A stretch of DNA of 61,338 nt, counting the filler, from Sphacelaria rigidula (Eukaryota): the NCBI GenBank assembly GCA_964200075.2. It is 8 parts of 8 records of this genome, joined end to end, with 100 filler letters (N's around TTAATTAATTAA, not from the genome) between each part and the next. Parts side by side here need not be neighbours in the genome. Positions count along the whole stretch, not along the records: positions 7,681 to 15,260 come from CAXNAA020014240.1; 7 more parts are not named here. The stretch is one strand, 5' to 3'. Both the position numbers and the translations under genes were made by a program. The notes beneath the pieces were generated by a model. The model saw only the letters and a list, made by a program, of their open reading frames with translations. It was not told where the DNA came from and made no database searches. This document shows, one piece after another, positions 5,061 through 53,759 of the stretch (position 1 is the stretch's first letter; the number at the start of each line of letters is the position of its first letter).

Positions 5061-7140
5061 GTCATTTTATCTGTTGGTTGTAGTTTCAAACAGTTTCGTC
5101 GCGTGGCAAACGTCGGCAACTTTGCACGTTCGCAGTGACACGTGGATATCAAGCAAGGGTGTTCCTCGTGATCTGTTCACCCATCCAATTGCCCATGCGT
5201 ACTTGAACCACTCCTGTAGCTAGTGCTCCCGCTTGCACAGGCCTATAGTCGGCTTTTACATCGTCCAATGTGCAAAATAGCCCTGGAATGTAAAATAGAC
5301 GTGGGGAGGGGAGGAGGTTATGCCGGAACTGATAGACGTGTCACTCCTTCCTTGTGATATGAGAATCCATTCAATCCAAACATATATTGCGCGAGAAGTT
5401 AAAGCCTACCTCGCTCGTCCAGTATCGCGAGTGTCATCGGATTGGCCAAGAAGTCACGTGTTGAACTCGTTTGGCCGGTTTTGACGGGGACAAGGCTGCA
5501 TTTGCTTGCGCACAGTCTGCTTTTATCTGTACAAACGAGGGATTTTCAGCCTCTTGACCACCGTTTTTCCCCGCAGATTGAGAATTGGAGGCCAGTCCAT
5601 CGGAAAATGTTCCACAAGTCCAACGACTCTTCATTGAGTCGTGATTCTCCACTCCGACGACTAATTTCAGGAATGGAGACGACTGAGAGTCAATTTCAGC
5701 GAACGAGATCGGGAAATGTCGACGCCTAGCGGTCGACTTCTACGACTTCGAAAGATGACGACGACTAAGGGTCGACTCCTACGACTATATTGTAAACGGC
5801 GACGACTGTTTGGCCGAACACAAGCCCCCCGACTCATATTCGTAGTTGTTGGACGTGTCTAATGATTTTCGGCTAGTCGTGACAAAACCAGAGCAACTCT
5901 CCGAGTCTCTGGATGTTGAGCCTGACCCGAAAATGTGTGTACAAAAAAGACATTTGCGGTCCACATCTGACTCTTGCGCGCAGATATTACGCATTGTCTC
6001 AATCCGACCAACGACAGGGAGTGCATGGATCAACGTCCAGAGAGTCGGAGAACGGATGGATCTGGCTACGTCGCAGCCAGCGGAGAAACACTGCCCAACG
6101 GACTGGTGTCCGGAAACGAAATCCGCGGGGAAAATCGTTTTCAGAGTTACTCGAATCTCCAGTTTCGTACAAACCCAGACATGTAGTGCCTATGAAAAGT
6201 GGTCTGGTCCGTGTAGGTTTCTGCCAGCACCTCGTGGTGGAGAATTGTAGTGTTGCGGTAGTATTGGTGCGAGTACTTCAGTTAATATTAGTAATGCGCA
6301 AGTAGTGTGGTCTGTCGGGGCGACGCAATAACACGCGCCAAACCTATCTTCGCCGTATGCGAGAGACCACCGTGTCGGGAGCTGCCAATCAGAGAGCCGG
6401 CACCGCCGACACGGCAACAGCGATCATTCGCGATAAGTTTACGATGGAAATGATCTGTCGAGGGAGTGGCCCGTGTTTTAGCCGACTAGAGGTGAGTGGG
6501 GGGGAGCGAGTTCAACACTGGAACTGATCTACCCCCGCCTTCTCTTCTCACTTGTCAATGTTTTCCTTGGTGCCTGACCTAGCGGTGTGCCCGGTGGTGC
6601 ACGTACATGTTCCACTTCGTCATTAGGCTCCATCGCTACGATATATTGCTTGCTCTCGGGTCTCTCTCGGTTCTCTTCCAATCTCATGTTCCCCCTTGAC
6701 ACTAGGCTCCATCACTGCGGTATCTTACCTCTCCTGTGGTCTCTTTGTCTTTTCCCCTCCCTCGCCGTTTTTCCCCGCTTCCAAGTTCCAGCGTTATGCA
6801 GTAGCCAAGTTCGTGCCTTCCTTTCACAGGGTTCGTGAGTGAGAGGTCACACGCAAACCGTGCGGTTCCCAAGTAGCTGAGCCCCAACCTGCTTCCATAG
6901 CCTTTCCCTGGGTTTGAGTGTATTTTGCGCACAGCCTTCTTCACCTAAAGCCCTGCTGCAGGGTGTGACAATTTTTCGCATCAAAACATTACATTCCATC
7001 GAGACCAGTTCTTCTGTTTGCTTTCTCTTCTTTGCTTTTGTTGTCCTCTTTCCCTTCCCTTGCCTTCCTGCTCTGTTCTCATTTGTTCTTACTCGTTTTG
7101 CCGTTTTCTTTCACTTTTCTTTCCAGAGAGTGTTTGGGTT

Positions 7141-7580: not shown

Positions 7581-7680
7581 NNNNNNNNNNNNNNNNNNNN
7601 NNNNNNNNNNNNNNNNNNNNNNNNTTAATTAATTAANNNNNNNNNNNNNNNNNNNNNNNNNNNNNNNNNNNNNNNNNNNN
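7581..7680. other. Artificial contig linker (N-TTAATTAATTAA-N)
   Basis: 100-bp N spacer with a six-frame stop cassette. Confidence 0.98.
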
Positions 7681-9165
7681 AAACTGCGAAGAAGCAAGTA
7701 CACATGACTCGAGATGAACACCGTTTGTCTCGCCCGAAGCACTCTCACCTCCACTGTGTATCCGAACGGCTGCACGGCGGTCTTCATGACCTCTTCAGCA
7801 GAAGTACCGGGGGCAGGAATCCGCAATGCCGGCGGGGTCGTGTCGACCGGCAGCTTCGACGGGAGCAACTCTGGGCCCACATACACTGCGCCGCCGATAT
7901 CATGCTGTCGAAAAATAGAGGGTGAAAACGAGCCGTTGGCAGTTGGAAAGATTGGTGAAAGTTCATGACACCTCTCACAAACGAAAACCTGTGACACCTA
8001 CATGAAGATCCGCCGCTACGGTAATCGGGGAACACGACTATTATGTTCACACGTCTACCGCCTAGCCGTGGTGTGGCTCTCTGTACCTTGAAGAGCCCAG
8101 AGGAGAATGCTTTATGGAACGTCTTCTCTTCGTGATCAGGCACCTCGCCGGAGAGACTGGCATCTGAGAGAAAGAGCTCGATAGGGCGCCCGCCTTGGAG
8201 GGCGATCTCCAGCCGTTGCGTCCTCTCGAGTCCAACACCAAGGACAGCGTCGCCCATGTTGGTGAACCTTCATGGATATGAAGAGGCAACGACGCTGCAT
8301 TAACGACGCAGAAGTGAGACCTCGCTATCCGCGCGGAGTGGTCGATTGCGAGGTTCGTCGCTCAACGAATGAATGAGCGCTTTTTGTGACACGCACCCTG
8401 ATATAGCAGTACATACAACAACCCGCTTGTCGCGTGACGCGTTGCCTTTCACTCGTATGATGGAGAAAAAACAAGACTCAACAGTTTAGTGATGGAACAT
8501 ATCGGAGGAGAAAGTAGAAAAGGACCGAGTGTACACGGTTTGAAAAACTACCAATCCATACAAATATAGACTATGCCTGAGCCGTCTGATAACATCACGA
8601 AGGGTGGAGTAATGCCTTTCATTAACCACCGGACACGCCATCACCTCCAAACGAAGGTGCGCAACAATCCCGGGGGGAAAGAATTTTCGGGGCCACCGGC
8701 CAGAGCTCCTTGCTTGTACGTCAACATCTCGGTGTGCCCGCCGCCGATCTTCTGCCAGCAGTCTGGCATTTTCCCCCTGATTGTGCTGCCGTAGGGGTCT
8801 TCAAATGTGGCCCTCTGATTCACCGTGAAACATTTCCCCTCTTGCTCTGACCGTTTGTGGGCCACCATGATGGCTTCGTGATGTGGGTAGAAATATATTT
8901 TCTCTTCTCTCTTCCGAGAGCCCCCGTGTTTGCTTGAATATTCGATGAGGATAGGGTCTTCTTCAAGCGCCATGGTGTGGTCTTGAGTGATGGCGTCTGT
9001 GACGTGGTGCAGGCGGGTCGGCGACAGCGAGGGCCGGGCCGGGGTGGGCGGTAGGGCGGGGGGGGGGGCATGGTCTTTTTTTGCTCGCCTTCGCCGTTTG
9101 ACCATTGACCGCGCGACACTCAGCCGGAGCACCGTTCCTACACCTGATGAATAAATACTTCCCAC
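7681..9165 (-). pseudogene. Decayed coding relic, possibly a Mutator-like (FAR1/SWIM) transposase
   Basis: ORF 8641..9165 (IYFYPHHEAIMVAHKRSEQEGKCFTV) loosely resembles a FAR1-type N-terminus. ORF 7784..8257 (FKV...VNIIV...SCRCHRF) loosely resembles the start of a SWIM finger. No DDE core seen. Confidence 0.25.
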
Positions 9166-9445
9166 CTTTCGGAACTCATGATGCTTCTTCCATATATGAC
9201 ACGAAGATTTTACAGACTTTATCCCCTTCCTGCTTCACCTTCTGTGGCCACCATCTATCTCCGAGTGTAGCGATCGTTATCTCGCTACAATTCTAGGTGC
9301 CAAACGATGCCATACCACCTTCATTTAAATCCCGAATTTCCCCCTCTATGTATCGCGTGTGGGGTGGTACCTCTGATTCTATTTCCATGCGGGAACCACG
9401 GCCGCGGCACGGCAAATGCGATCGTCCCCGAAGGATGCAAGGCGC

Positions 9446-10186
9446 TCAGCAGTTTGCCCACGAACCGCTTGAAATGCCCTTCACGTGGTCGTCTGTTTGT
9501 GACAGGATACTTTTCTCGGCATCCAAGGAGACGAGGATGAGCTTCGGCTGGCGTGCCACAGACAGGGGGTCGCCTCCATCGATGAGCTCACACCCTCTGC
9601 GAAGTAGGTTTACCGCGTGCGTGGTAGAACTCTTGCGCCTGTGCGGAAAAACAAAGGCCATTCCACACGGTACATGTCGATATCCCACGGAAGAACGCGA
9701 GTGAAGTGCGATCCTGAGGCAGACAACCGAAGACTTAATCTGCGTGCTTACCTTTCCTGCGCATGCGACGTCTATCACCAGTAGCATCGCATCGACCGTC
9801 ACTGGAAATGCCCTGCTACCGCCTTCGGATGAGCTGGTTGTCCAAATCGTTCTAATGGAACCCAACATGAGGTACTTCCAGGCCATCCGAGTCATGTTAG
9901 ACTTCTCGGCAGGCGTACTGTTGGATTGTACTGTGGCTACAATACGTGACTCAGCTCCCATACCGACAGCCCCTCGATTGACGACAGAACATAACGAATC
10001 TAGTCTAGTTTTCAACACTCTTATCTGAGCATCATTCGACCTACAGACAGCTGTCAGCTCTCGTATAGCGTCCAGTATAGTATGCATGGTAAATCCAACA
10101 TCATCCGAATCGTTCTCATATGACTCCACCGGAGGTTCTGGTACCAAGTTAGACACGAACTCTTCTGTTGGTCTCGGCTCTGCCAT
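9446..10186 (-). CDS. Intronless hypothetical protein (acidic N-terminus plus coiled coil), divergent partner of the TFIIS-ribbon ORF
   Basis: 246-aa ORF with an ATG 30 bp from the ATG of 10217..11818. ILDAIRELTAVCRSNDAQIRVLKTRLDSL shows a heptad pattern. The last ~90 aa may be read-through into unrelated flank. Confidence 0.6.
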   Translation of the reverse strand: MAEPRPTEEFVSNLVPEPPVESYENDSDDVGFTMHTILDAIRELTAVCRSNDAQIRVLKTRLDSLCSVVNRGAVGMGAESRIVATVQSNSTPAEKSNMTRMAWKYLMLGSIRTIWTTSSSEGGSRAFPVTVDAMLLVIDVACAGKVSTQIKSSVVCLRIALHSRSSVGYRHVPCGMAFVFPHRRKSSTTHAVNLLRRGCELIDGGDPLSVARQPKLILVSLDAEKSILSQTDDHVKGISSGSWANC

Positions 10187-10216
10187 AGTTTAGGATTTGC
10201 TGTAGCTGTTAGCTCA

Positions 10217-11818
10217 ATGGTAGACTCAGCAATGAAAGGTGAAGGCAACTGCGACTTGTGCGGAACGAAGCTATCGTCTGTGAGGTTTCAAATTAGATCG
10301 TTGGATGAGGCAGCTACTGAGGTTATGTCATGTCCCGACTGTGGGCCGGCTGCAGCAAAGTTGTCCTCTTACTCACCAGAGAGACGATCTGTCTTGCTCA
10401 ACAGCGTCCTGCTACAACCTATACCTACTCGTAAGCAGTACGAGGACCTACAACAGTCCATCCAAAGCACTGCAATAAGACAGTCGCTGGACCCTACAAC
10501 AGACACTTTCAGATCCACCATTGCAGGTTGGCAATCCCTACAGGTGGTTGTTCTACAAGGCAGGGCATCTTCATCAATCGCTCGCTCACTGAGATTGACT
10601 AGCCGAGGTCGACAACAGGGAGCTGGACGTTACTCTAGGTCCATCTACTCGCCTGTAGACCCTGACAATAAGGTGGGCCTAGTAACAATGGAACACACTG
10701 TGAAAAGGAGACTGAGCAGACTACCAGCAATGGGATTGGCCTACCTTATGTACACAGAGCAAGTGTTGACCACTCTGTCCGATGACGTTCAGGTTCTGTC
10801 TAGACAGAGGGTGGAGCCCACAAGGTGTGCAGGTCATCTATTGAACGATCAGTGGACCTACACAAGGACCGTGAAGAAGGACGTTGCTGACGTTAATGGT
10901 GATGCTTACGATGTAGAGGTCCTGTCCAGTCAAGGTGATGTAATGAGAGCAACACTGACCTATGTGAGATCAACAGTGAGCAGACCCGTCGGATGCAAAC
11001 TGGCTACGGTGTGCTCATGGGCAGCCAATGTCTGCATGTATCTCCGCGTTGATCTCAGAACAGTCGACGAATGTGTAGCCTATGTCGACTACTGTCGGTC
11101 ACTGATAATGACTAGCACCGATGAGTCACTGGTTGTCATATCAGGTGTGGTACACGCATTCCTTCCTACAGTCGGTAAAATCAACCGACAGGGATCTGTA
11201 AGTTCGCTGGGTAGGAAGATTAAGTGGTCTCCCAACGTTACGGACCTACCACACAATGATGGTACGGTATCCATCTACTCGCGATTGGATATTAACAGTG
11301 CCACCGGTATGCCTCAGCTTTCCAGTGCAATTACAGGTGTGTTGGTAGATCATGGTGGAAACATTGCTATCATCGATCATGACAGACAGGTGTACATGAG
11401 TGTATGTGCTAGGGCTGCCCGAGTTCTGCCAGGTCATATATGCTCACCTCTAGCTGACAGCCTGTGCTACACCGGACGGACCACGAATGGTCTGTTGAAC
11501 ACTCTGACATCCAATAGAAAGAGGGCTATAGTCAGACCCGGAGTCACAGTCGAGGACCTAGTCTTCGAGCTGCTATCAGATGAGCTGATCAACATGTCGG
11601 AGCTCACACCGTTGATGCTAGTACTGATGGCCCATGTGAAGTCTCCTCATCTACACCGTGTTGCCAAGAGTATGATGGTACTGCATGGCATGGAGAGAGC
11701 ACCGTCGAAACACACACCCTACCCGACGGGTCATCATTACGTATTTCCGCTTTTATTTTTATTAGCTTGCAGTTATCACCGACTCCCTTTAATGTACGAT
11801 CTCATTGTCTTCACCTGA
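10217..11818 (+). CDS. Intronless 533-aa protein with N-terminal TFIIS-C/RPA12/RPC11-type zinc ribbon; virus- or plasmid-like
   Basis: CDLCG-TKLSSVRFQIRSLDEAATEVMS-CPDCG (10250-10345) matches CxxC...Q(T/I)RSxDE..T....CxxC. The ORF is long, complex and uninterrupted. The last ~35 aa may be read-through. Confidence 0.75.
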   Translation: MVDSAMKGEGNCDLCGTKLSSVRFQIRSLDEAATEVMSCPDCGPAAAKLSSYSPERRSVLLNSVLLQPIPTRKQYEDLQQSIQSTAIRQSLDPTTDTFRSTIAGWQSLQVVVLQGRASSSIARSLRLTSRGRQQGAGRYSRSIYSPVDPDNKVGLVTMEHTVKRRLSRLPAMGLAYLMYTEQVLTTLSDDVQVLSRQRVEPTRCAGHLLNDQWTYTRTVKKDVADVNGDAYDVEVLSSQGDVMRATLTYVRSTVSRPVGCKLATVCSWAANVCMYLRVDLRTVDECVAYVDYCRSLIMTSTDESLVVISGVVHAFLPTVGKINRQGSVSSLGRKIKWSPNVTDLPHNDGTVSIYSRLDINSATGMPQLSSAITGVLVDHGGNIAIIDHDRQVYMSVCARAARVLPGHICSPLADSLCYTGRTTNGLLNTLTSNRKRAIVRPGVTVEDLVFELLSDELINMSELTPLMLVLMAHVKSPHLHRVAKSMMVLHGMERAPSKHTPYPTGHHYVFPLLFLLACSYHRLPLMYDLIVFT

Positions 11819-13793
11819 GCTGTGTTTTGGTTGCGAACACAACTCTTGGGGGGGGGGGGGGGGGGGGGTACATCGGCACATTGTCAAATTCGAAGAATCG
11901 CGGCACAAACAAACCGCAAGTATTATAGGCGTGGAAACAAACACAGTATAGAAGATGACGATATGTTTCGAGTGCTGGGGTCTGATCAAGACCTACGGTA
12001 CTGCCTTACGCCGCCACACCCCTCCCCTCCCCCACCCTGACGTAGGAACACTCTCACGGTGTACACCGAAAGTATGAACGCGACGCAGCCATAGTTGCCA
12101 ACCAATCGGTCGTTTCTCGCGTTGGTGTTCCCGCGGGGGGGGCAAGGGTTATGTGACCAACTACACTCACTGAGAGACACGTGCCGAAAAGATGGCATTC
12201 ACGGGCAACTGTTTTCACACGAGGAAACGCTCGGCTCGATCTGCGATCATCGCACCTTTGCTCTTTCATAGTGGCGCCGGCGGGAGGTCGGGGAACGCTT
12301 GCCTTCCTCGCTTTCTTCCCGCTATTTGATGTGACGCCGTCTCCGGCTGGTGCCTGAGATTCTTTCCTCTTCCGGCGCTCTGGGTCGCCCTCGCACGATA
12401 TGCAAAGGCGCTTTCTTCCCTCGGCCAGAGTCGCATCTTATGAGATAGGGACGAGCAGGTCGCAGAAAGTATGGTGTGCAACCCCGCAGTGCGTGTATCG
12501 GTACCTGTGGGAATGAGGACAGAGGAATATATGTCGGCGGCGAATCGATCGACAGTCTCGCGAGCAATGCCTTCATCGATGGGTGTGTACCTCGGTGCCC
12601 GCCCTCCGACTAGATACTCTATGTGTGCTATTTTCACTCTCACCTGACGTGTAGGGTGGGTTTGCACGACTCGCACACTTTGCCCTCGCGACTACCCGCT
12701 GCTGGGCGGTCCCTGGCCTCCTCACCCTCGCCGTCGGCCTCCCGAACGGATGCGTTGTTCACATCTCCCTCGCCGCCGCTACACACGAGTTTTAAACGCG
12801 CTGTCTTGTCGTTTATCGCGTTCCATTTTTTTCTCCACGTTTCGCTGAAAGACTTGAGGGTCCCTCTTTGTGTCATCTGCGATCGGGGGTGACGGCACTA
12901 TCTCTGGTATATCAAGTACGAACCAAGATACAGAAGAAGGGACGACCGGCAGCAAGTCTCTGCTTTGTCTCTGGAGTGCAAATGTACGTGGGTGGTGGTG
13001 GTGTTTTACTCTCCTCGACCAGTATTACCGGGAAAGATACAGTTGACTTCCGTGCCTGAGCAGCGACGGCGGTCACTGATCAGCTCGCGACAGCAAATAT
13101 ATGTCTCCACTTTCTTAGGATAAAGTCAACTATCGACGGGGAGCAACGTACCAGCTCCAAGGGCCGTGGAAGTCTTCCCTTGTAGACCGCCTCGAATTCC
13201 TTCATGGTTTCGCCTTCCTGTTCTTCGGCCGGCAGGCTTTCTCTGATATCGTCTTGTCTACGGACGATATGTGGTCCCCCACGAACAGCTGGAAATCTTC
13301 CAACCCGTACGTACCGTTTATCATTTTGTGCACGCCACTGTTCGCAGAAATCGGAATCGAAAACATCGAACGTCGCACCACAGTCTGTGATGGGTCGACT
13401 AGTGTGCAGAGATAGTCACACACACGGCGGCGCATTCTAACGTGGTCTCGATATGGGCAGAGTGCCTTACCTCGGGCGGTGGCCGGGCTACAGATTAACG
13501 GCACTCACTCCTTGAACCTGTCCGTCCAAGCAAGACGAGGGATCACGCTCTCGATTCTCTACACCAGGTTGTGCGCGATTCGGGCGTTTTTGGTGACCCG
13601 ATCCCAATCTTTCGGTGTGAGTGTCATCTTGTTCGCCCTCGAATGTCTGGCGTGGCACGGTCGAAAATCGAGGATGAATGTTGTCTGGGTACCGCCCTTG
13701 GGATCTTTCATGAGCATCGCGATATATTCGAAATAAACACACATCTGCACTCTCCGCCTGTCATATGTGGCCTCGCTCATTCTCGAAAACAGC

Positions 13794-14069
13794 CATCTGC
13801 AATTCGCGACCCCCGGCGTTTATACGGGTCGATATTGTCTTTCCTTTGTCCAAAAAATAAAATGCAACCAACCATCCAACCAACCATCCTCAACCAATCT
13901 TTAATTGATCAAGAATTAATTTTTATATACAGTTTCAAATTATATTCAAAATTCAACCAACCATTCAACCAACCATCCAACCGTCCATCCTCAAGCAATT
14001 TATAATTAAGTAATAACTAATTTTTACATCTGCAATTCGTGACCCCCCGGCGTTTATACGGGTCGATAT
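13794..14069 (+). repeat. Local direct duplication (CATCTGCAATTCG...GGCGTTTATACGGGTCGATAT twice; CAACCAACCAT blocks twice)
   Basis: ~42-bp block at ~13794 and ~14027, with AT-rich sub-repeats between. Confidence 0.7.
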
Positions 14070-15260
14070 CGCCCTCCAGCGATTCCGGTGCAAAAAACTG
14101 TTCATCTCATATTTTGTTTTGCTACGATGACTGAGGTCATACATCCCAACCGGAGAATGCTTTTGTATTTTGATTTTGAAACCTTTTCAATGTTGATGAA
14201 GGTTCCCGAGGTTGGTCCTTTACCAAAAGTCTATCCTCAATTTTGAAAGTAGACTGCTTCGCGCGGAGGTGGGGGGTATGTGTGGTTATACCTTGGATAA
14301 ATTGGTTATGACGGTCTATCAACCAGGACATACCACATGACACACTCTCGTCATCCTTCGGTGCGGCGAATTAATGGAAGATAACTCTAGATTATCACAA
14401 CAAGCGACTGGATGGACCAGCGGTGCATACCTTATGAGCATATTGACGGCGATCAATGCGCTGCGGGTTTGGCGTGTAGATCACTGTAAGCCTTGCTCTT
14501 CAGGTACTTTAGCAAAACACATTTTGCGTCGATACCAGGGTCCGACGTCTGGAACGCCCAGGCAATGACCTTCATTGCTTCCGGTGTAGTGGAGAAGCAG
14601 GCCTTCCGCCAGTGCCGCATCGTCACGAGCGACAGAGAATTCAAACCCAGCTGTTTTCGGTAACAAGGGGGCACCATCGGACCGTGCAGAAAAACATACA
14701 GCAGATGCGGTGAATGTCGTGTTCGCTGCACACTGGATTGTTTCTCGGCGTACGAGTGGGTGGGAGACGCAGTGCACGCGCCGTAAACCGTCCGGCAACT
14801 AGTCTAACCCAATACAAGTGGACTTGACTCGGTTCCGAGATGTAACGTACATGATCCGCAGTGCACATATGATACAATACGACTTGAAACTTCACCCAAT
14901 GCCCACTATCGTCCCCGTGTAATGCAGACCCGGTTTTGTAGTACCCCTTGTTTCACATTCCACTACTCACGTTCGTGAACTCCTTTGCTATTGGTTTCCC
15001 CGTGACGGCATCGCTCCCCGTCCTCTCCTGGACCGAGGTTATGATCCAGACGAATATGTAAAGCTTGTCGTACGTGTTGCGGGGAAACAGAGTTTCGCTG
15101 ACATCGTTTAAAGCTGTTCGAAGGCATACAGGCAGCAGCAACGGTTGACGCGGTTATTATTCTCCGATGTTCAAGACCTGTTTTTCGGAAACATTTCCTC
15201 TCTGACACAGCTGATAACAGTGTTGCCAGAAAAATGAGAACGTATTTTGAAATGAGAATC

Positions 15261-23040: not shown

Positions 23041-26000
23041 GCAGCAAACCGTCCTTGTTCTTTAACCTACTTTAACACAGCCAGGACATAGACCTGAAAT
23101 AGAGAAACAAACCCTCCTTTCTTTTTCACCTACTGTAACACAGCCAGGCCATAGACATGAAATAGAGAAGCTCACCCTCCTTTGTATTTCAATTACTATA
23201 ACGCAGTCCAGAGATTGACCTGGAATGGAGAAGCTCACCCTCCTTTTGATTTCATCTACTATGATGCAGTCCAAACATTCATCTCAAATAGAGAAGCTAA
23301 CCCTCTTTTGTTATCAATCTACTATAACACAGACCGGACATAAACATGAAATAGGGCAGCGAACCGTCCTTGTTCTTTAACCTACTTTAACACAGCCAGG
23401 ACATAGACCTGAAATAGAGAAACAAACCCTCCTTTCTTTTTCACCTACTGCAACACAGCCAGGCCAAAGACATGGAATATAGAAGCTCACCCTCCCCTTG
23501 TTATCAACTTACGGTAACGCCGTCCGGATGAAAACATGGAATGGAGAGGCTAACCCTCTCTTTTTTTCAACCTACTCTAACACAGCCGGGACATAAAGAT
23601 GAAATAAAGAAACAAACCCTCCTCTTCTTTTCACCTACTATAACATGGCCAGGACATATACATGGGTTAGAAAAGCTTATCCTCCTTGTCATTCAACCTA
23701 CTATAACACAGCCCGAATATAAACATGAATTAGAGAAGCTCACCACCTTTTTTATTCAACCTACTACAACACAGGCCGGATATGAACATAAAATAGAGGA
23801 GCTAACCCTCCCTTTTACTCAACCTACTATAACACAGCCCGGATATAGACATGAAATAGAGAAGCTAACGGTCCTTTTTCTTCAATATTCTATAACACAG
23901 CCAGGACATAGACATGAAATAGAGAAGCTCACCCTCCTTTGTATTTCATCTATTATAACGTAGTCCAGAGATTGACATGGAATAGAGAAGCTCACCCTCC
24001 TTTTGATTTCATCTACTATGATGTAGTCCAGACATTCACCTTAAATAGAGAAGCTAACCCTCTTTTGTTATCAATCTACTGTAACACAGACCAGACATAA
24101 ACATGAAATAGGGCAGAAAACCGTCCTTGTTCTTTAACCTACTTTAACACAGCCAGGACATAGACCTGAAATAGAGAAACAAACCCTCCTTTCTTTTTCA
24201 CCTACTGTAACACAGCCAGGCCAAAGACATGGAATATAGAAGCTCACCCTCCCCTTGTTATCAACCTACTGTAACGCCGTCCGGATGAAAACATGAAATA
24301 GAGAAGCTAGTCCTCCTCTTTCTCCAACCTACTCTAACACAGCCGGGACATAGAGATGAAATAAAGAAACAAACCCTCTTCTTTTTCACCTACTATAACA
24401 CAGCCAGGACATAGACATGAAATATAGAAGCTTACCCTCCTTTCTATTTCGCCTACTATAACGCAGTCCAGACATTGACCTGAAATAATGGAGCTCACCC
24501 TTCCTTTTTATTAACCTACTATAACACAACCCGAACATAGACATGGAATAGAGGAGCTATCCGTCCTCTTTCTTGAACCTACTATAACACAGCCCGGCTA
24601 TAGACATGAAATAGAGAAGTTCACCTACCTTTTTATTCGACCTACTACAACGCAGTCCAGACATTGACCTGAAACAGAGAAACTAACACTCCTTTGAATT
24701 CAACCTACTATAAAACAGACCGGACATAGACATGAAATAGAGAGGCTAACCCTTTCTTTGGATAAACCTACTATAACACGGCCCGGACATAGACATGAAA
24801 TAGAGGAGCTAACCCTTCCTTTCTTTCAACCTACTATAACACAGCCCGGATATAGACATGATATAGGAGAGCTGACCCTCCTTTCTTATCAACCTGTAAC
24901 GCCGTCCGAATGAAAACATGGAATAGAGAAGCTAACCCTCCTTTTCTTCAACCTACTATAACACAGCCGGGACATAAAGATGAAATAGAGAAACAAACCC
25001 TCCTTTTTTATCTACTATAACACAGCCAGGACATAGACATGAAATAGAGAAGCTCAGCCTCCTTTTTATTCAACCTACTATAACGCAGTCCAGACACTGA
25101 CCTGAAATAGAGAAGCTAACCCTTCTTTTTATTTAACCTACTATAACACAGCCCGGACATAGACATGAAATAGAGAAGCTAACCCTTCCTTTTAATCAAC
25201 CTACTACAACACAGCCCGGATATAGACATGGAGTAGAGAAGCTGACCCTCCTTTCTTATCAACCTACTGTAACGCCGCCCAGACACTGACCTAAAATAGA
25301 GAAGTTGACCCTCCTTTTTATTTAACCTACTATAACACAGCCCGGACATAGACATGGAATAGAGAAGCTAACCCTTCCTTTTCATCAACCTACTATAACA
25401 CAGCCCGGATATAGACATGGAGTAGAGAAGCTGACCCTCCTTTCTTATCAACCTACTGTAACGCCGTCCGGATGAAAACATGGAATAGAGAAGCTAACCC
25501 TCCTTTTCATTCCACCTACGATAACACAGTTTGGGTATAGACATGAAATAGAGAAGCCCAACGTCCCTTTCCTCTCACCTGACTGCTGCCGAGATAGCCC
25601 CCCCCCGAACCGGCCAAAAACGTGCACGGAGGCGATGAAACAAATGCCGTTAGAAATGATTTCGTGCTGCACGACGCGACGTATTTGGGCGTCATAGCTA
25701 ATTTCGAACTGCTACACGCCTTTCATTTGTGCGAAATTGCTGCGAACGAGCCCAAACGTCGGGATTGCAGCCGGTTTGTCGTACGGTCTCCGGTGCACTT
25801 TTCGTGCAGGGGCTATCTCGGCATAAGTCACCTACTATAACACAGCCCGGACATAGACATCAAATAGAGGAGCTTACCCTCCTTCATATCTCACCTACTG
25901 TAACACAGCCCGGACATGGACATGACATAGAAAAACAAACCCTCTCTTTTCTCTCACCTACTATAACACAGCCAGGACATAGACATGAGATAGAGAAGCT

Positions 26001-29000
26001 TACCCTCCTCTTTATTTCATCTACTATAACGCAGTCCAGACATTGACCTGAAATAAAGGAGCTAACCCTTCGTTTCTATCAACCTACTCTAACACATCCC
26101 GGACATAGACATGAAGCAGAGCAGCTAACCGTCCTTTTTCTTTGACCTACTATGCCACAGCCAGGACATAGACTTGGGATAGAGAAGCTTACCCTTCTTT
26201 TTATTTCATCTACTATGACGCAGTTCAGACATTGACCTGAAATAGAGGAGCTAACCCTTCTTTTCTAACAACCTACTTTATCACAGCCCGGACATAGACA
26301 TCAAATAGAGCAGCGAACCGTCCTTTTCTTTAACCTACTCTAACACATCCCGGACATGGACATGAAGCAGAGCAGCTAACCGTCCTTCTTCTTTGACCTA
26401 CTATAACACAGCCAGGACATAGACATGAAATATATGAGCTCACCCTCCTTTATATTTCATCTACTATAACGCAGTTCAGACATTGACCTGAAATGGAGAA
26501 GCTAACCCTTCTTTTTTATCAACCTACTATAACACAGCCCGGACATAGACATGGAATAGAGGAGCTATCCGTCCTTTTTCTTGAACCTACTACAACACAG
26601 CTAGGACATAGACATGAAATAGAGAAGCTCACCCTCCTTTTCTTTTCATTTACTATAACACAGCCCGGACATAGACATGGAATGGAGCAGCTTACCCTCC
26701 CTTTTATTCAACCTACTATAACACAGCCAGGATATGAACATGAAATAGAGAAGCCTACCCTCCCTTTTATTCAACCAACTATAACATAGCCCGGATATAG
26801 ACATGAAATGGAGAAGCTCATACTCCTTTCTATTCGACCTACTAAAACACAGCGCGGATATAGACAGGAAATAGAGCAGCTAACCCCACTTTTTCTTGAA
26901 TCTACTATAACACAGCCAGCACATAGACATGAAATGGATAAGCTTACCCTTCTTTTTCTATAACCTACTATAACGCAGGCCAGACATTGACATGACATAG
27001 AGAAGCTAACCCTCCCTTATTTTACCCACTGAAACACGGACTGGACATAGACATGACATAGAGAAGCTGACCCTCCCCTATTTTACCCACTCAAACACAG
27101 ACGAACATACACATGATATATCGAAGCTAACCCTCCCTTTTATTCAACCTACTATGACACAGTCAGGACATAGACATGGAATGGAGCAGCTAACCCTCCC
27201 TTTTATTCAACCAACTATAACAGCCCGGATATAGACATGAAATGGAGAAGCTCATACTCCTTTCTATTCGACCTACTAAAACACAGCCCGGACATAGACA
27301 TGAAATAGAGCAGCTAACTCCGCTTTTTCTTGAATCTACTATAACACAGCCAGCACATAGACATGAAATGGAGAAGCTTTCCCTCCTTTTTCTTTAACCT
27401 AGTCTAACACAGCCCGGATGTGAACATGAAATAGAGAAGCTCACCCTCCTTTTCATTTCATTTACTATAACACAGCCCGGACATAGACATGGAATGGAGC
27501 AGCTTACCCTCCCTTTTATTCAACCTACAATAACACAGCCAGGATATGAACATGAAATAGAAAAGCTTACCCTCCCTTTTATTCAACCTACTATAACACA
27601 GCCAGGGTATCAACATGAAATAGAAATGCGTACCCTCCCTTTTATTCAGCCTACTATAACAGCCCGGATATAGACATGAAATGGAGAAGCTCATACTCCT
27701 TTCTATTCGACCTACTAAAACACAGCCCGGACATAGACATGAAATAGAGCAGCTAACCCCGCTTTTTCTTGAATCTACTATAACACAGCCAGCTCATAGA
27801 CATGAAATGGAGAAGCTTTCCCTCCTTTTTCTTTAACCTAGTCTAACACAGCCCGGATGTGAACATGAAATGGAGAAGCTCACCCTCCTTTTCATTTTAT
27901 CTACTATAACGCAGTCCAAACATTGACATGACATAGAGAAGCTAACCCTCCCATATTTTACCCACTAAAACACAGCCTAGACATGATATATAGAAGATAA
28001 CTCTCCTTTTTATTCACCCTACTATAACAGCCCGGACATAGACATGAAATGGAGAAGCTCATACTCGATTTATTTCACCTACTGTAACACAGCCCGGATA
28101 TAGACATGAAAAAGAGCAGCTAACCCTCCTTTTTCCTCAACCTACTTTAACACAGCCCGGACAAAGAGCCACGAAAAATAGAGAAGCTAACTCTCCTTTT
28201 TATTTTACCTACTATAACCTGCCCGGACATAGACATGAAATAGAGCAGCTAACTGTCCTTTTTCTTCAACCTACTATAACACAGCCAGGACATAGACATG
28301 AAATAGAGAAGCTCACCCTCTTTTTTGTTCAACCTACTATAACACAGCCCGGATATAAACATGAAATAGAGAAACAAACCCTCCTTTTTGTTCAACGTAC
28401 TGTAACACAGCCCGGAGATAGACATGGAATAGAGCAGCTTACCCTCCCTTTTATTCAACCTACTATAACACAGCCAGGATATCAACATGAAATAGAAAAG
28501 CTTACCCTCCCTTTTATTCAACCTACTATAACATAGCCCGGATATAGACATGAAATGGAGAAGCTCACCCTCCTTTTCATTTCATCTACTATAACGCAGT
28601 CCAGACATTGTAATGACATAGAGCAGCTTACCCTCCCTAATTTTACCCACTAAAACACAGACTGGACATAGACATGATATATAGAAGCTAACCCTCCTTT
28701 TTTTCACCCTACTATAACACAGCCCGGACATAGACATGGAATAGAGCAGCTTACCCTCCCTTTTATTCAACCTACTATAACACAGCCAGGATATCAACAT
28801 GAAATAAAAATGCTTACCCTCCCTTTTATTCAACCTACTATAACATAGCCCGGATATAGACATGGAATGAAGAAGCTCACCCTCCTTTCTATACAACCAA
28901 CTAAAACGCAGCCCAGATAGAGACAGGAAATAGAGCAGCTAACCCCCCTTTTTCTTGAATCTACTATAACACAGCCAGGACATAGACATGAAATGGATAA

Positions 29001-30620
29001 GCTTACCCTCCATTTTCTATAACCTACTCTTACACAGCCCGGATGTGAAAATGAAATAGAGGAGCTCACCCTCCTTTTCATTTCATCTACTATAACGCAG
29101 TCCAGACATTGACATGACATAGGGCAGCTAACCCTCCCTACTTGTACCCACTGAAACACAGACTGGACATAGACATGATATATAGAAGCTAACCCTCCTT
29201 TTTTTCACCCTACTATAACACAGCCCGGACATAGACATGGAATGGAGCAGCGAACACTCCTTTTTATTCACCCTACTATAACACAGCCAGGATATCAACA
29301 TGAAATAGAAATGCTTACCCTCCCTTTTATTCAACCTACTATAACAGCCCGGATATAGACATGAAATGGAGAAGATCATCCTCCCTTCTTTTCAACCTAC
29401 TAAGACACAGCCCGGACATAGACATGAAATGGAGCAGCTAACCCTGCTTTTTCTTGAATCTACTATAACACAGCCAGAACATCGACATGAAATGGAGAAG
29501 CTTTCCCTCTTTTTTCTTTAACCTAGTCTAACACAGCCCGGATGTGAACATGAAATAGAGAAGCTCACCCTCCTTTTCATTTCATCTACTATAACGCAGT
29601 CCAGACATTGACATGACATAGAGCAGCTAACCCTCCTTTTTCCTCAACCTACTATAACACAGCCCGGACAAAGAGCCACGAAAAATAGAGAAGCTAACTC
29701 TCCTTTTTATTTTACCTACTATAACCTGCCCGGACATAGACATGAAATAGAGCAGCTAACTGTCCTTTTTCTTCAACCTACTATAACACAGCCAGGACAT
29801 AGACATGAAATAGAGAAGCTCACCCTCTTTTTTGTTCAACCTACTATAACACAGCCCGGATATAAACATGAAATAGAGAAACAAACCCTCCTTTTTGTTC
29901 AACGTACTGTAACACAGCCCGGAGATAGACATGGAATAGAGAAGCTAACCCTCCCATTTATTCAACCTACTATAACACAGCCCGGATATAGACATGAAGT
30001 AGAGATAGATGCTGACTTTCCTTACTTATCGACCTACTATAACGCAGTCGGGATGAAAACATGGAATAGAGGAGCTAATCCTCCTCCTTATTCCACCTAC
30101 TATAACACAGTCCGGACATAGACATGAAATAGAGAAGCCAACCCTCCTTCTTCTTTAGCCTACTATAACACAGCCAGGATATAGAGATGACATTAAAAAA
30201 CTAACCCTCTTTTTTTTCCAACCTACTATTACACAGCCCGGAGATAGACATGGAATAGAGCAGCTTACCCTCCCTTTTATTCAACCTACTATAACACAGC
30301 CAGGATATCAACATGAAATAGAAAAGCTTACCATCCCTTTTATTCAACCTACTATAACATAGCCCGGATATAGACATGAAATGGAGAAGCTCACCCTCCT
30401 TTCTATATAACCAACTAAGACACAGCCCAGATAGAGACAGGAAATAGAGCAGCTAACCCCCCTTTTTCTTGAATCTACTATAACACAGCCAGGACATAGA
30501 CATGAAATGGATAAGCTTACCCTCCATTTTCTATAACCTACTCTTACACAGCCCGGATGTGAAAATGAAATAGAGGAGCTCACCCTCCTTTTCATTTCAT
30601 CTACTATAACGCAGTCCAGA
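23041..30620. repeat. 63-bp tandem satellite (~116 diverged monomers) with higher-order repeats; fills the whole contig
   Basis: Approximate consensus CCTACTATAACACAGCCCGGACATAGACATGAAATAGAGAAGCTAACCCTCCTTTTTATTCAA. Variant blocks recur at 315 bp (23041/23356), 757 bp (23356/24113), ~439 bp (~27217/27656) and ~1.51 kb (28161/29668, 29041/30555). Confidence 0.95.
25581..25829. mobile_element. 249-bp MITE inserted in the satellite, 4-bp TSD ACCT
   Basis: TIRs GACTGCTGCCGAGATAGCCCC / GGGGCTATCTCGGCATAAGTC (2 mismatches in 21). ACCT lies at 25577-25580 and 25830-25833; removing the element restores a monomer. Confidence 0.9.
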
Positions 30621-39200: not shown

Positions 39201-42200
39201 CTACCTCCCCGCAGAGGGATGTTTGATATGGCTCTCACCTCCTTTAAAATTCGGGAAACTGAACGGGACATACGCCCCTCGTTTGATAAGCACCCTCTCC
39301 TTCTCCTCCTGGGAAATATTGGGCGCTCCCACGATCCCGCGCAATGCTGTCAGCAGCTTCTGCGTGTACATCATGTTGTTCTTCGTGTTGGACTTCAATG
39401 CCGAGCTTCTGCCCTGCGTGTTCGTGGGTTTGATCGCGCCATTCCGGGATGGGATCGTATATACTTTTTGCTTTGTTGCGCCCTTTTTGGTCTTCTCGCC
39501 CAACACGTAACAGGCGATATTATCCTGCAGCTTCTTCTGAGATACTCCGGAGCACGACAGAACGATCGCTGCATGTGGACCACTTAACACTCGCCCGTCT
39601 AGCGCATGCAGAACCTCTGTGCCAGCCGCCATGAAGGCAGGAGTACCGTGTAGCCTCTGATACGCCTGTGTCACGTGGGGTTCACGCTTGAGATATAGCT
39701 CTCTTGCGGGGTTCCGCCCGGCACTTTCCCCGAAGAACAGTTGTTCCTTCACTTCTTGTTCGGCAGCAAGCTTCTCCACCGCAGTAGGGGTCGTCTTTGT
39801 GACGACTTTTTTGAAGAACGTGTTCGCCATCTCCTGCCGCTCGTCGAGCCCCACTCTCGCCCGACTCCTGTTGTCACGCAACGTCACGGAAAACAACTGC
39901 TCCACGATCTTCAAGTCGGATTCCGGCATCTGAGTGATGCTGCGATAGGGTCAGCACTTTTACGGCCTGAGAGTAGAATTGTTAGGAATCCTTCATCTCA
40001 TCCAAAACACGACTTTCGAAATAGGTGAGAGTACGCCAGGGTTTTTCTTCCAATTTGCTAGGGATATCCAGAATGAATTTGCAAACGGGGATATCCTGAC
40101 CCATATTCTTGTGTAGTTTCTAATTTTAGGAACCCCTGAATCAGGCCGGTTTTGGCCCCAAAAGTGCAAACCCTATCGCAGCATCAATCATCTGCGCCAT
40201 GTGCATGAGATGAAGGACCATCAGCCACTGGTAACAGTCCTTACCGGTCACGCAGAATATGGCTGCCATGCGGCGAAGGCCTGCCAGTTGAAGCAGGAAG
40301 CTGCCCGTGCGCAAGCCCGTCCGAAACGCCATGCACGCTGGATAATGGTGAAGAACGAAGCTCTCCCACACCCGGCAGCTCTTGTGGTTTTCTGCACGCG
40401 TCCGAACCCAAGCTCGAATAGAAAGGATGTCTTCCTTCCTCGCATGTATCTTCACCTTGCTCGCTGTGTCGTGGATTTCTTACGTTAACTGCTCACCATT
40501 TTTTATCAAGGGGATCATGATCGTCATCATGTTCGCGACGCCGACCCTCAGCCGCCGTTGCAGCTGCCCCGGTGCTAGGGGGTGCCACTGATGCGGTGTC
40601 GGCTGTGGACTCTGGTCGACTATCACCCGCCGCGGCTGGTTCTGCGCAGTCGGTAGGGGATGATTCCATGCTGACGGCGACCGATGCTTCGGCGGCAGGG
40701 CCGCCTGCCACATCGGCGCTCCCGGCGCCCGCCGGCGCTCTTCCGCTGTCGGCGGTGGAGACGAACTGCACAGGTCCAGATTCTCGGAAGTCTACCAGTT
40801 TCGTACTGGCGTGGAAGACGCAGAATACCGGTGCATCGAGGCCCACGATGTCATGCGTCGCTTCCCAGGAACAATCCTCCCCACGACACATGAACTGCTC
40901 GGTAACTATGAGATCGGAAAGCGGAGGGCACGGCGATCGCAATGGTTGGTGCTGACGACGTTTAATGGATGCGCAGGACCCGGGGCCGCTGTGGTGGGAG
41001 AAGCGGATGCCAGGTTATTATCGAATAAGGTGCCGCTCTCTGCTCATTCCTCATGGGTGATGCGGGGGTGGAGCGCGCACGTTGTTCTCCAGTGGGGGCG
41101 TTCGGCGGTACGGGACTTCCTCCTGCGGCGCCCTGCAGCGGAGCGGCTGACTCCGCGGGGTCTGACACTGGCCCTGAGGCGGCAGCCGCAGCTTCGGCAA
41201 TCGATCCCGCCGCAACCCCAGGATTGGTGTCTTTCACACTGGGTCTACGCTCGGAGTAGTACATGGTCACCGTTTTGTCCCCCATGACTCCGAAGAACAC
41301 GCAGATTGTGTGGTGCGCAACGCGGTAGTTGCTAGCCTCCGATGATTTCCTCCCGTCCAGTCCAAGCGCCTCCGCTACGTACTCTATCCCTACCCCCCAA
41401 TATCGCGTCATGGTCGCCTTCGCCATGTGATATAGGAGATGCCAGTCACCCACGTATACCCGGAGCCATTGGTTTTCGCGGGGGTCGCTCCGAATGAGGT
41501 AGTACATGAACCGCAAGATCTCCTCGTTACCGGCAACCATACACGCCGCAGGCGCGCCCCTCCCACCCACGCGGCGTATATCAGCAATGCGGGCAATCGA
41601 GGCTTTCGAGTCGGCCCAGCTCTTCGTGCTCCCCAACTGCATGAGAAGGTACTTGAACACTTGGGGCTCCCGCTGCATCGTAGGTACTGCCTGCCTCACA
41701 ATTTCAACCGTGCGGCGGAGAGAGGGCTGATGAGGTCGCTGTTGCACAGTGTTGCATATCTTCAAACCACGATTTAAACCCCGACCCCGCGGTGACAGTA
41801 TCCGCCGGGTCAAAGGATCATGCCGCAACTTCGCTGTTGAAAGCCATGCACATCGGCATAATGCGCTGGGCAATCATTCCATATCGACTGCCATTGCTAC
41901 CTCGGGCGTCACCGCCGAAGGCAGCAGATACACGAACTTTTGTCGGTCATCATCTGCAGCCTCCCCAACCCCGCTCACCTCTTTCATCTTGGCGTGGGCT
42001 GTGCCGCCCCTCACCACCGTGTCGAGAATTGCCATAGCCTGATCCCGCTTGCGCCGGTCGCCGACAGTCCGGGCCCGTGCGGCCCCCCTAGCTTCTGTCA
42101 GCCACGATTGGACCTGTCCCAGGCTCACTATTCGCCCCGCCTCAAGGTTCGCTATGACTGTCCCGCGTACTTCTACGACGAAGTACGGGTCGGCAGGGGT

Positions 42201-43814
42201 AGGGTCAGGAGTGAGGTCTACCGTTAGAGGTGTGGGACAACGCGCACGAGTGAACTTGGTCTCTTGCCTATCGCTCTTGCGTCTGTACCGCTCGAAGGAG
42301 GGCAGAAAACTAGGTTGGTAGCTCGGAGAAGCACAGCGGGGCGCGCTAGTGCCATCCGCACACTGGAGGGATATCTCCGCCTCTGCAACCCACGCTGGAC
42401 CTAGATGAAGCCAGCTTTTTCCTTCGCCGGGCCCCGGTCGATGGCACGCCACGCATAGCCGCGATGCAGGGTCGTGTGTTTGACCACAAGATGGGCACAT
42501 ATACCACTGCCCTTCTACAAGGGGGTACGTGATCCCGCACTCCTCGCGACCACAGGCCCGCTTCGGTTGTCGACGCCAGCTGCTTCCGCTAACGGGTTTC
42601 GAGTGAGCCGGCGCTGACTGCTCCATCATATAGCTGTCACGACTTTCGGGATGACCCTGTGCACCACTGCGTCGCATCGTTACCCTCGTTCGTTCACCGT
42701 GCCGTCGATGCCTACCACAACCACCTTTGGCGGGGGAGGTTTGCTTTTCCCGATCCCTCATGACATCGGCGCTAGCCCCAGTCGTTGGCGTGGACGTAAC
42801 CCACTCGTCATCACGCCCCGCCGTAGATGCGCTGCCGCCGTCTCGACACGTCCCTGGGACGAGGTTAGGCGCAGCAGCACAAGAATCCCTCTTGTATTCT
42901 TCCGCTTCGATCTTGATCTCGAAGCTGTGGATGGTGTTGGTTTTGAGGAGGACGGTGAGCCGGGTCGCTTGCTGCTGTGTCTCGAGGGCATTAAAAAGCC
43001 ATCCGGCAACCCAAGTGGAGGCTCCAGTGATGTGTTGCATGGGGATACGGGTGTCGTAGCCACCCGAGGAGAATTTGTGTTCCTTTGCTCGATCCCTGTG
43101 CTGTAATGCAGCCTCCTGCTGCTCAGTCCATGTTCCCCATGCGCTACTCACATCCGGGTGGTTAATCATGTTCCCCTTCCGTCTTGACGCCGATACGTGG
43201 GCATACCGAGGTGTGCCTCTACCGGACCTAGGCGGGGCACGTATTTTATTTGTCTTGGAAGGTGAAGTAGATCTCCCCACCTCACGGGGTATCCTGCCCG
43301 TAGTTTCTCGGCTTTCGCGAGTTGTGGTGCCCACTTCGTGGAGAGTTGCCATCGGCACAGTGGATGCCGATAGCTCCCGTGTGTTCACCTCCGACGCGCA
43401 GGTACTAGAGACTGTGTGCGTCGGGCCTTCCCTGGGCGATCGCCTCTCTACTTTTTCATTCTGCGAGCTTTGCCCATCGTTGCTTCCACCCACCGCCCCC
43501 TCGGTCTGTATGGGTGCACCATCGACGGCCGCGCCTGGCGTTCGAGATTCACAAAACAGTGTGATCGCCCTGTGATACGATTGGGGCCTGGGCTCCTCTC
43601 CTCCCGCGTCTTCGTCGCCGACGTGGCCGCCAGCAATTTCCCTCATATTTGACATCGGCACTGCAGGTTCTACGCCTGCCGGCCAGGAACTTCTCTCAAC
43701 CACATTTGCGGCATGTGCCGAGGGGGATGGCAGTCGAAAGTACGCAGGTGTTTCACTCCCTGCCCGCATGACATGCAACAGCGCGCATGTGTGCAAAAAC
43801 TTAGTTTTGTGCAA
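39201..43814 (-). pseudogene. Large Academ/DUF6589-like DNA transposase pseudogene
   Basis: Motifs occur in the order I recall for Academ-type transposases: VAGNEE...WLRVYVGDWHLLYH...RYWGVGI..VAEALG...NYRVAHH; then W.SFV...AFRTGLRTG...LRRMAAIF...YQWL..LHL; then FSVTL...VGLDERQEM. 41874..43814 and 40962..41873 share a frame separated by one TGA. Upstream Cys cluster CGREEC...CPSC...CVAC. Confidence 0.6.
39932..40189. mobile_element. 258-bp MITE, 4-bp TSD ATCT (same family as 7141-7396), inserted in the transposase
   Basis: TIRs GAGTGATGCTGCGATAGGGT / ACCCTATCGCAGCATCAATC (1 mismatch in 20). ATCT lies at 39928-39931 and 40190-40193. Confidence 0.92.
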
Positions 43815-51100: not shown

Positions 51101-52557
51101 GCTTTAGCTACCGCCGCGGCTGACAAAGAACGTTCGGAAGCTAGCAAAACAGCAGTTTCCGATAGAGTTGGGTCTGCCCGAGTAGCTGCAATACAGAGGC
51201 AGTACATTCAGATGGATGTGAAAAAACCCTGGCACATCAAAACCATGCCTGCCGCGGATAACGAAGATTCGGGCCAGTTTACTTCTACCCTCGTCACGTC
51301 CATCCGCCGCACTGTTTGTAACATCCTTCACTTGGCGGATGTGACTGGCACACAACGTTCCGAAGACTCAGACTGGGTACAGGGCTGGCAGACTCCCTTG
51401 CACAAAGCAATGCATCGATCGATCAGCCGCCGCTCTCCCGACCTCTTTGCTTCTTTGACGCAGGTGCTCGACGGATTCCTCGCCGACATGGATCCGGATC
51501 GTTCCCAAGGGAAGACAGGCCCGCAATTACTCTCTGGTTTGAAAAGGCGTCTCATAGGTTACTTTGACAAAAGTGATCAAGCCAGCGTCATCCAGAGGCT
51601 GAGTTCTTTTGTCGTCGCATCTGATGTCCCCTTCGCGGAGCATCTCCGCGAATTTAAGCTTTTGGTTTCGGGTACGACGGGTGTCGGATGGCAGAATGGA
51701 CCGAGCGATGCAATGTGTCAGACTTACGCTCGCAATAGCGTTGCTCAACAGTATCCGGCTCTGATGCCGTCGTTGTTTCCGGGTGTCTTGGCGCATCGCG
51801 AGGTGCCTTTCGCCTCCGTTGAATCTATGTGGTAAGCGTTTGTACACCAGGAGAGTAATCTAACACCTGCCATACGTGGCAAACCTTTGACGTCTGTGCG
51901 TTCACAACCTACGGTTGTGTCCTCCGCTCATGCCCAGGGGCTCGCGGCAGGAATTCGAGTTCGTCTTGCGCTTCATGGATCCCCGACTCAGTCGCCGGTT
52001 CAGTTATGCATGTTCAGAGTACCAGAGATGCACTTAGCGCGAGTTTTGACGATTGGCCGTTTTCCGAGGAAACTTGGGATGATGTTTATCTTACTTCAAC
52101 CACGGCATTCATAACCGATTACCCCCATTTATGGAACCCACTTCTTTCGTCTTCCGCCAGACGCAATGCCTGCAGCAGTCATGCCAGCAGTTGCATCAAC
52201 TGCAGGGTTCAAGGCCACAGCATGCGCGACTGTGACAGTCCATGCATCAATGCCTTTGATCTCATGAACCCTGAATTGCAGGACAACGAACCCGCGTGGC
52301 GCCGATGGCAAAAACGCATGCGCGATTATCGTCCACCAACTCGAAATTACCGCAGCAATTCGAACCAACGTGGCAACAAAAGCTCTAATCGCGGTCGCCG
52401 ACACAACAACAATCACGGAAACCCTCGCCAGAACGATCAGAATTCTCGCGACAACAAATGTTCCGCTGATAGACACCAGCGGACGGGGCCGACACAAAGT
52501 TCTAATCCCAACACCAGAAACCCTGGTACCTTCAACTCGGATCGCGTAGACCTATGA
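48162..52557 (+). pseudogene. Very long decayed gag/ORF1-like retrotransposon protein with a CCHC zinc knuckle
   Basis: ORFs 48162..50069, 50130..50486 and 50520.. share one frame broken only by point stops, then shift to 50756..51835 and 52006..52557. CINCRVQGHSMRDC (52192-52233) is CX2CX4HX4C, followed by an R/N-rich tail. No introns evident. Confidence 0.7.
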
Positions 52558-52599
52558 CGTGCCGACGCCGGCGTTCTTCGGTCTTCCACACCGTCGATA

Positions 52600-53659: not shown

Positions 53660-53759
53660 NNNNNNNNNNNNNNNNNNNNNNNNNNNNNNNNNNNNNNNNN
53701 NNNTTAATTAATTAANNNNNNNNNNNNNNNNNNNNNNNNNNNNNNNNNNNNNNNNNNNN
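53660..53759. other. Artificial contig linker
   Basis: N-TTAATTAATTAA-N, 100 bp. Confidence 0.98.

Follow-up and report, generated by a model that had tools for sequence, protein, structure and literature searches.

A foreign, doubly truncated gene pair in a high-copy repeat of Sphacelaria rigidula, probably derived from a very divergent DNA virus or virus-like element

Introduction

The cytoplasmic linear plasmids of yeast, virus-like elements of the pGKL2 type, are compact, have no capsid and encode a multi-subunit RNA polymerase that is divergent and split into rearranged pieces. They are AT-rich and carry a protein-primed family B DNA polymerase (PolB).

In brown algae, surveys find phaeoviruses to be the dominant viruses, together with minor traces of Imitervirales and Algavirales, according to the accessible part of the source (10.1101/2024.02.19.579948). 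Fragmented giant-virus insertions are described there, and in a portion of a further account, as common in these genomes (10.1101/2024.02.19.579948; PMC12993054). The same part of the survey states a filter by which only contigs longer than 10 kb were kept, with marker matches of 1e-20 or better (10.1101/2024.02.19.579948). A near-complete phaeovirus element of Undaria is, in the accessible part of its description, without RNA polymerase subunits and TFIIS (10.1101/2025.02.06.636530). PolB, a D5-like helicase, RNA polymerase subunits and TFIIS are given as core genes of the Nucleocytoviricota in the portions available of two sources (10.64898/2026.08.29.747986; 10.1101/2025.02.06.636530).

Here we analyse a stretch of 61,338 nucleotides from the Sphacelaria rigidula assembly GCA_964200075.2, referred to below as the window. 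It consists of contig pieces whose joins, and not any biology, appear as paired N gaps every 7680 bases from position 7581. An initial annotation had read a head-to-head pair of open frames in this window as ~2 kb from a densely packed genome, viral or plasmid-like, lying in repeat DNA. Empty sites, further copies, purifying selection between copies and linked replication and transcription genes all bear that reading out.

Results

Where does the foreign DNA begin and end? The two frames had been thought to run out into host-like sequence at ~9720 and ~11700. We searched the genome with positions 9700–11750, which gave 35 matches; 20 loci were examined, and 16 of these were copies of the surrounding repeat. 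In every one of the 16, the sequence to the left of 9733 is joined directly to the sequence to the right of 11697 and the insert is absent. The foreign DNA accordingly ends at 9732/9733 and 11697/11698, close to the positions first proposed. No target DNA was lost at the insertion site, the dinucleotide AG flanks the insert on both sides, and no terminal repeats were found at its ends. Given these features and the bases shared at the left end (table 1), the anatomy appears to be that of DNA captured at a break and not that of a transposon. We did consider a transposable element and rejected it: end repeats are lacking, both genes are cut, and other copies end at different points. The island is real, foreign and truncated at both ends.

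The receiving repeat spans at least the two flanks listed in table 1. It is longer than 5.5 kb and very abundant, with a summed contig depth that exceeds the insert's several hundredfold. Four candidate ORFs of the repeat have no match in Pfam or NCBIfam. A ParB-like motif was seen by eye in an ORF near two repeat copies (L107 9222–9998 and L109 671–1306), without a Pfam match.

Table 1. Positions of the insert, its genes and the flanking host repeat in the window.
Feature	Position	Strand	Remarks
Left part of high-copy host repeat (unclassified)	7681..9732	.	84–97% identity to other copies
Tail of ORF A, read-through into host repeat DNA, not viral	9446..9732	-	matches repeat copies
Left junction	9729..9732	.	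2–4 bases common to repeat and donor; empty-site alignment, donor-like copy L035, allele counts
Foreign insert	9733..11697	.	1,965 bp, of which 1,935 bp (98%) coding; absent from 16/16 other repeat copies examined
Gene A, probably virus-derived 5' part, 151 codons	9734..10186	-	family not recognised; C-terminally truncated; own-genome matches, dN/dS, L035
Spacer between the two start codons, 30 bp; putative shared control region	10187..10216	.	conserved geometry
Gene B, probably virus-derived 5' part, 493 codons	10217..11697	+	C-terminally truncated; L032 pieces 71–73% identical
Zinc ribbon of TFIIS/RPA12/RPC11 type, four Cys and acidic DE hairpin	10250..10345	+	PF01096, PDB, hhalign
Tail of ORF B, read-through into host repeat DNA, not viral	11698..11818	+	matches repeat copies
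High-copy host repeat, right part	11698..15215	.	colinear in other copies up to N gap

The first description holds for the start codons at 10186 (minus strand) and 10217 (plus strand), for the spacer between them and for the open frames, which are 246 and 533 codons long. How much of each frame belongs to the insert? In ORF A the last ~95 codons match the repeat, and in ORF B the last ~40. The frame of the former tail is open for 111–151 codons in 13 of the 16 empty copies, that of the latter for 7–98 codons in the 16. We conclude that the ends of both ORFs are read-through and that both genes are cut. The spacer is also 30 bp long in copy L032 and measures 34 bp in the distant gene pair of L042, a conserved geometry that suggests a putative bidirectional promoter; a sigma-70 scan is not applicable to it.

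The pair is not as isolated as had been stated. Nearly every other long ORF was said to be decayed, but the window also has ORFs of 631 codons (41874–43769) and 614 codons (48225–50069). The stretch 48225–53711 is retroelement-like, with a long low-complexity ORF, a weak zinc knuckle and ~70% identity to a gypsy-like element in L048. At 23043–30614 a 63-bp unit is repeated ~120 times in tandem, with strong GC skew; a related array is found in L044.

In composition, too, the insert stands apart from its host. Over 614 codons its third positions are evenly used (A 0.26, C 0.24, G 0.24, T 0.26), giving a GC3 of 0.48, against a GC3 of 0.725 and A of 0.13 in 349 codons from six pieces of host exons (chi-square p 8e-12). 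The codon endings are thus unlike those of host exons, as the initial annotation held; its impression that they are rich in A is not upheld, usage being even. The insert is depleted in CpG (0.68), AA (0.71) and TT (0.61), the corresponding flank values being close to 1. One dinucleotide signature is common to the insert and to loci L032, L045, L073 and L094, and is absent from the flanks. When a model trained on other virus-like fragments was applied to the window, its three top 500-bp bins fell inside the insert; the remaining 117 bins, on most of which the background model was itself trained, had a mean of -0.049 and a maximum of 0.010.

Were genes A and B ever real genes? Gene A has seven matches in its own genome, six of them besides the window copy, at 27–92% identity. 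The copy L032 is 79% identical and retains both starts and the spacer, with one stop and two frameshifts; its gene B runs ~150 codons past the right junction to a stop. In L035, gene A continues to its own stop and another ORF follows close behind. A contig of sequencing run X3 carries a third copy, ~90% identical, which likewise extends beyond the right junction and is distinct from L032, with 25 differences there against 52 in L032. Between the window and L032, dN/dS is 0.25 over 486 codons of gene B and 0.11 over 132 codons of gene A; between the window and L037 it is 0.03 over 58 codons of gene A. A shifted-frame control gave 1.2–1.5. The values of 0.25 and 0.11 between diverged copies indicate that A and B were real genes. 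Separately, the 3' end of L032 is duplicated together with ~5 kb of host flank in L123 (4–5026) at 92–94% identity.

The window copy itself behaves differently. Against the closest copy, L035, dN/dS is 0.95 at a dS of 0.10 (93 codons), a neutral-looking value. The changes specific to the window number 4 in 226 sites, all at codon positions 1–2; these four changes suggest ~2% drift since capture. In simulations of ~2% neutral divergence, both frames stayed open with a probability of 0.28 without indels and of 0.03 with one indel per ten substitutions, so that neutrality is somewhat strained in the latter case. Youth of the insert accounts tolerably for the open frames. Most likely the window copy is young and drifting neutrally, and the insert itself is probably a dead, non-functional fragment. 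Of the two options first offered, recent integration fits, and retention under selection finds no support in the ratio against L035.

Is the locus present outside the assembly? Near-identical insert sequence occurs in runs X1, X3 and X4, at low, even depth, the repeat being several hundred times deeper. The source sample may be X1; X3 and X4 are two further samples, X3 from another study. Among the differences listed for X4, three are synonymous and three nonsynonymous. In run X5 the insert is covered only in patches and at low depth. Among the runs listed as containing the sequence none is of RNA, which says nothing about expression. Among the contigs listed, one from X1 extends 30 letters over the right junction, a single letter under our criterion, and none crosses the left junction. 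Reads thus confirm the locus itself only in part.

What might gene B encode? Its N-terminus carries a zinc ribbon of TFIIS type, with C12, C15, C39 and C42 and an acidic hairpin at D30–E31. The match to PF01096 has an E-value of 0.0013 at 19 bits, below the cut-off of 21, and reaches 23.1 bits in the genome scan. The best PDB matches are RPA12, RPC10 and TFIIS (E 0.008–0.02). Aligned to the ribbons of L042 and L140, one of which passes Pfam on its own (E 1.2e-7), it gives an hhalign probability of 95.5%. Gene B is not a full TFIIS factor: the ribbon starts at residue 12, there is no central domain, and no other Pfam match lies under E 0.09. In L140, at 1430–2010 (G000:C921), two starts of TFIIS-ribbon genes lie inverted and facing each other.

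Beyond the ribbon, gene B has no relative among 5.8 billion proteins, among 1.84 billion representatives (0 matches) or in the Atlas, and an alignment of gene A found none among viral and metagenome contigs. Since word- and pattern-seeded searches miss distant relatives, such blanks are not proof of absence. The AlphaFold models are unusable (pLDDT 33 for gene B, 44 for gene A). A triphosphatase tunnel domain in gene B, an idea formed by eye, found no support, including in the Pfam scan. There is a hint of likeness over 35 residues between gene B and a protein of L073 and L076.

Which genes accompany the relatives of A and B? At L042 a homolog of gene A, 26% identical, faces a TFIIS-ribbon gene across its own 34-bp spacer (hhalign 95.9% and 95.5%). 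At L045 another, 55% identical to that of L042, abuts a piece of RPB2 domain 6 (PF00562, E 3.7e-5; phrog_3295, E 1.2e-5). The large gene opposite ends in a stretch that looks RPB2 clamp-like by eye and is weak in the PDB (E 1.9). At L045 4119–7146, RPB2-like sequence thus seems to be split over two genes on opposite strands. That large gene is 57% identical to one at L073 (G000:C19519; 453–6393), a ~6 kb piece, nearly all coding, and the longest of this virus-like family seen. L073 holds the large unrecognised gene, a 296-codon ORF and, head to head, a D5-like helicase (phrog_1156, E 1.6e-7) and PolB (phrog_262, E 3e-10). The helicase–PolB pair recurs in L096 and, at 29–36% identity, in L094. 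Matches in the genome number nine for PolB, four for D5 and three for the RPB2 piece.

All the hallmark-gene matches are weak, and the link from the window to a polymerase runs through homologs 26–35% identical to its gene A, no one contig having both the window genes and a polymerase. The RPB2 piece found nothing among 5.8 billion proteins, searches with the PolB pieces gave no database relatives, and none turned up in IMG/VR. When a PolB profile was scored against 8,000 candidates of at most 819 aa, the one protein it recovered was the genome's own.

Three further observations concern other loci. L137 has, at 1357–1704 (G000:C1475), a catalytic piece of RPB1 (motif ADFDGD, E 6.9e-5) that is very divergent, sits in rearranged DNA and is unlinked to other genes of the family. 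Upstream of a gene A homolog, L039 has an ORF of virus-like composition (5102–5917) with relatives in L072, L077 and L080. In L072 and L077 this ORF family is fused to a hAT dimerisation piece, which suggests carriage by a transposon.

Discussion

What is the insert, and how did it arrive? We read it, with a probability of about 0.78, as a young endogenous fragment, end-joined into a break in a repeat, of a compact, intronless and very divergent dsDNA virus or virus-like element that had an RNA polymerase of its own. Among the donor's genes would be those for PolB, a D5-like helicase, a factor of TFIIS type and this polymerase, a multi-subunit one. There, genes A and B would be transcribed divergently from a spacer of 30–35 bp, and gene B would most likely act, to judge from the motif at its N-terminus, as an aid to the viral polymerase in transcript cleavage or proofreading. 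The captured piece may have been taken from viral DNA directly or from an endogenous copy of greater age. The junctions are as observed; end joining at microhomologies of 2–4 bases would have patched the piece into the broken repeat. Both genes are without their 3' ends. Such pieces may be captured repeatedly at breaks, then decay and spread with the host repeats.

A donor without a capsid would be an alternative: a linear or circular, plasmid-like DNA element with its own RNA polymerase, like the virus-like elements in the yeast cytoplasm. General Pfam scans of the fragment ORFs gave no capsid, A32 ATPase or VLTF3, nor was a packaging ATPase or integrase identified in them, and extreme divergence and very tight packing would suit such an element. 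So would the Atlas result for the PolB piece, in whose top cluster 13% of members carry PF03175, the protein-primed type. The PolB pieces themselves, however, match PF03104 and PF00136 and not PF03175, and PolB stands head to head with a D5-like helicase, as in RNA-primed replication. The fragments are moreover so short that a missing capsid gene means little, several ORFs being unassigned (L073 2460–3347, L035 1769–2311). We hold a plasmid-like donor to be unlikely.

That the host has domesticated the window copy, keeping truncated genes with repeat-derived tails by selection, is decidedly improbable. The copy does have 644 codons free of stops and frameshifts, against the stop and two frameshifts of L032, the simulated chance of open frames with indels is small, and the sequence is common to at least three samples. 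Yet the ratio of 0.95 against the closest copy and the position of all four window-specific changes speak against it, as do tails that are open in empty copies also and an insert that lies within a repeat with both genes cut. An origin in a bacterial jumbo phage or symbiont, whether integrated or co-assembled, we find scarcely credible. The exonuclease stretch of PolB has T4/RB69 gp43 as its best solved structure (E 1e-8 over 97 positions) and, among phages, cyanophage gp43 at 28%, values of similarity and not of a tree; the RPB2-like gene is seemingly split, and a phiKZ chain is a weak match (E 0.5). But the ribbon matches eukaryotic and archaeal factors, the fragments lie on many contigs inside host repeats and beside host exons, and no relative turned up in IMG/VR. 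Nor is the repeat, restored exactly across the insert, what a chimera would leave.

If an endogenous fragment of a virus or virus-like element is the correct reading, to what group does it belong? A phaeovirus was rejected: gene B and the PolB profile gave no sequence match there in the searches made, RPB2 domain 6 lies beside a homolog of gene A, and there is the TFIIS ribbon. Ariadnavirales were rejected because they are without polymerases, TFIIS-like genes and D5 in the accessible part of their description (10.64898/2026.08.29.747986). More tentatively, and with rather less than even confidence, we propose that these are fossils of undescribed brown-algal dsDNA viruses, or capsid-less elements, at the level of an order or class. 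Their compact genomes would consist of gene pairs set head to head; the multi-subunit RNA polymerase would be rearranged, the PolB T4-like, and the TFIIS ribbon joined to a large new protein. At least three genotypes, 30–60% alike, would point to repeated infection, the latest recent. No such lineage is described in the mostly open-access literature searched; Table S19 (viral regions) of the bioRxiv survey may list some fragments.

Were this true, relatives of the group may still circulate, and a lineage so divergent and fragmented would slip through survey filters. The insert gives access to a virus-like lineage of great divergence. The fragments of the family (PolB, D5, RPB2, gene A and the TFIIS fusion) can serve as probes for the virus in other algal genomes and in seaweed viromes, and they allow a test of where the polymerases branch.

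How, finally, does the locus compare with known systems? Like the insert, endogenous phaeovirus regions are monoexonic, dense viral DNA and occur as scattered fragments from 2 kb up, in the accessible part of the survey (10.1101/2024.02.19.579948). The family to which the insert belongs has RPB2-like and TFIIS-like genes, however, and the Undaria element has none in the available portion of its description (10.1101/2025.02.06.636530).

From the pGKL2-type plasmids it differs in a GC content of 49% and in a PolB that pairs with a D5-like helicase. The ribbon of gene B is the four-Cys ribbon of the TFIIS/RPA12/RPC11 C-terminus, with its Q-x-R-S-x-D-E acidic hairpin, and the C-terminal domain of baculovirus LEF-5 (PF11792) is a weak match (E 0.097). 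Unlike these proteins, gene B has neither the TFIIS central domain nor an RPB9-type N-ribbon, and its ribbon is fused to ~600 unrecognised residues. A further comparison is with the cytoplasmic Nucleocytoviricota that have their own transcription and a poxvirus- or asfuvirus-like gene set. PolB and the D5-like helicase are shared with them, in the linked L073, L094 and L096 and not in the window; the weakly matched RPB2-like pieces and the TFIIS-type ribbon may correspond to their RNA polymerase subunits and TFIIS, and the family may belong to this phylum. Compared with known Nucleocytoviricota the family is far more divergent, its RPB2-like sequence is seemingly spread over two divergent genes, no capsid, A32 or VLTF3 is seen in Pfam scans, and its ribbon sits at the N-terminus of a protein of more than 600 residues.
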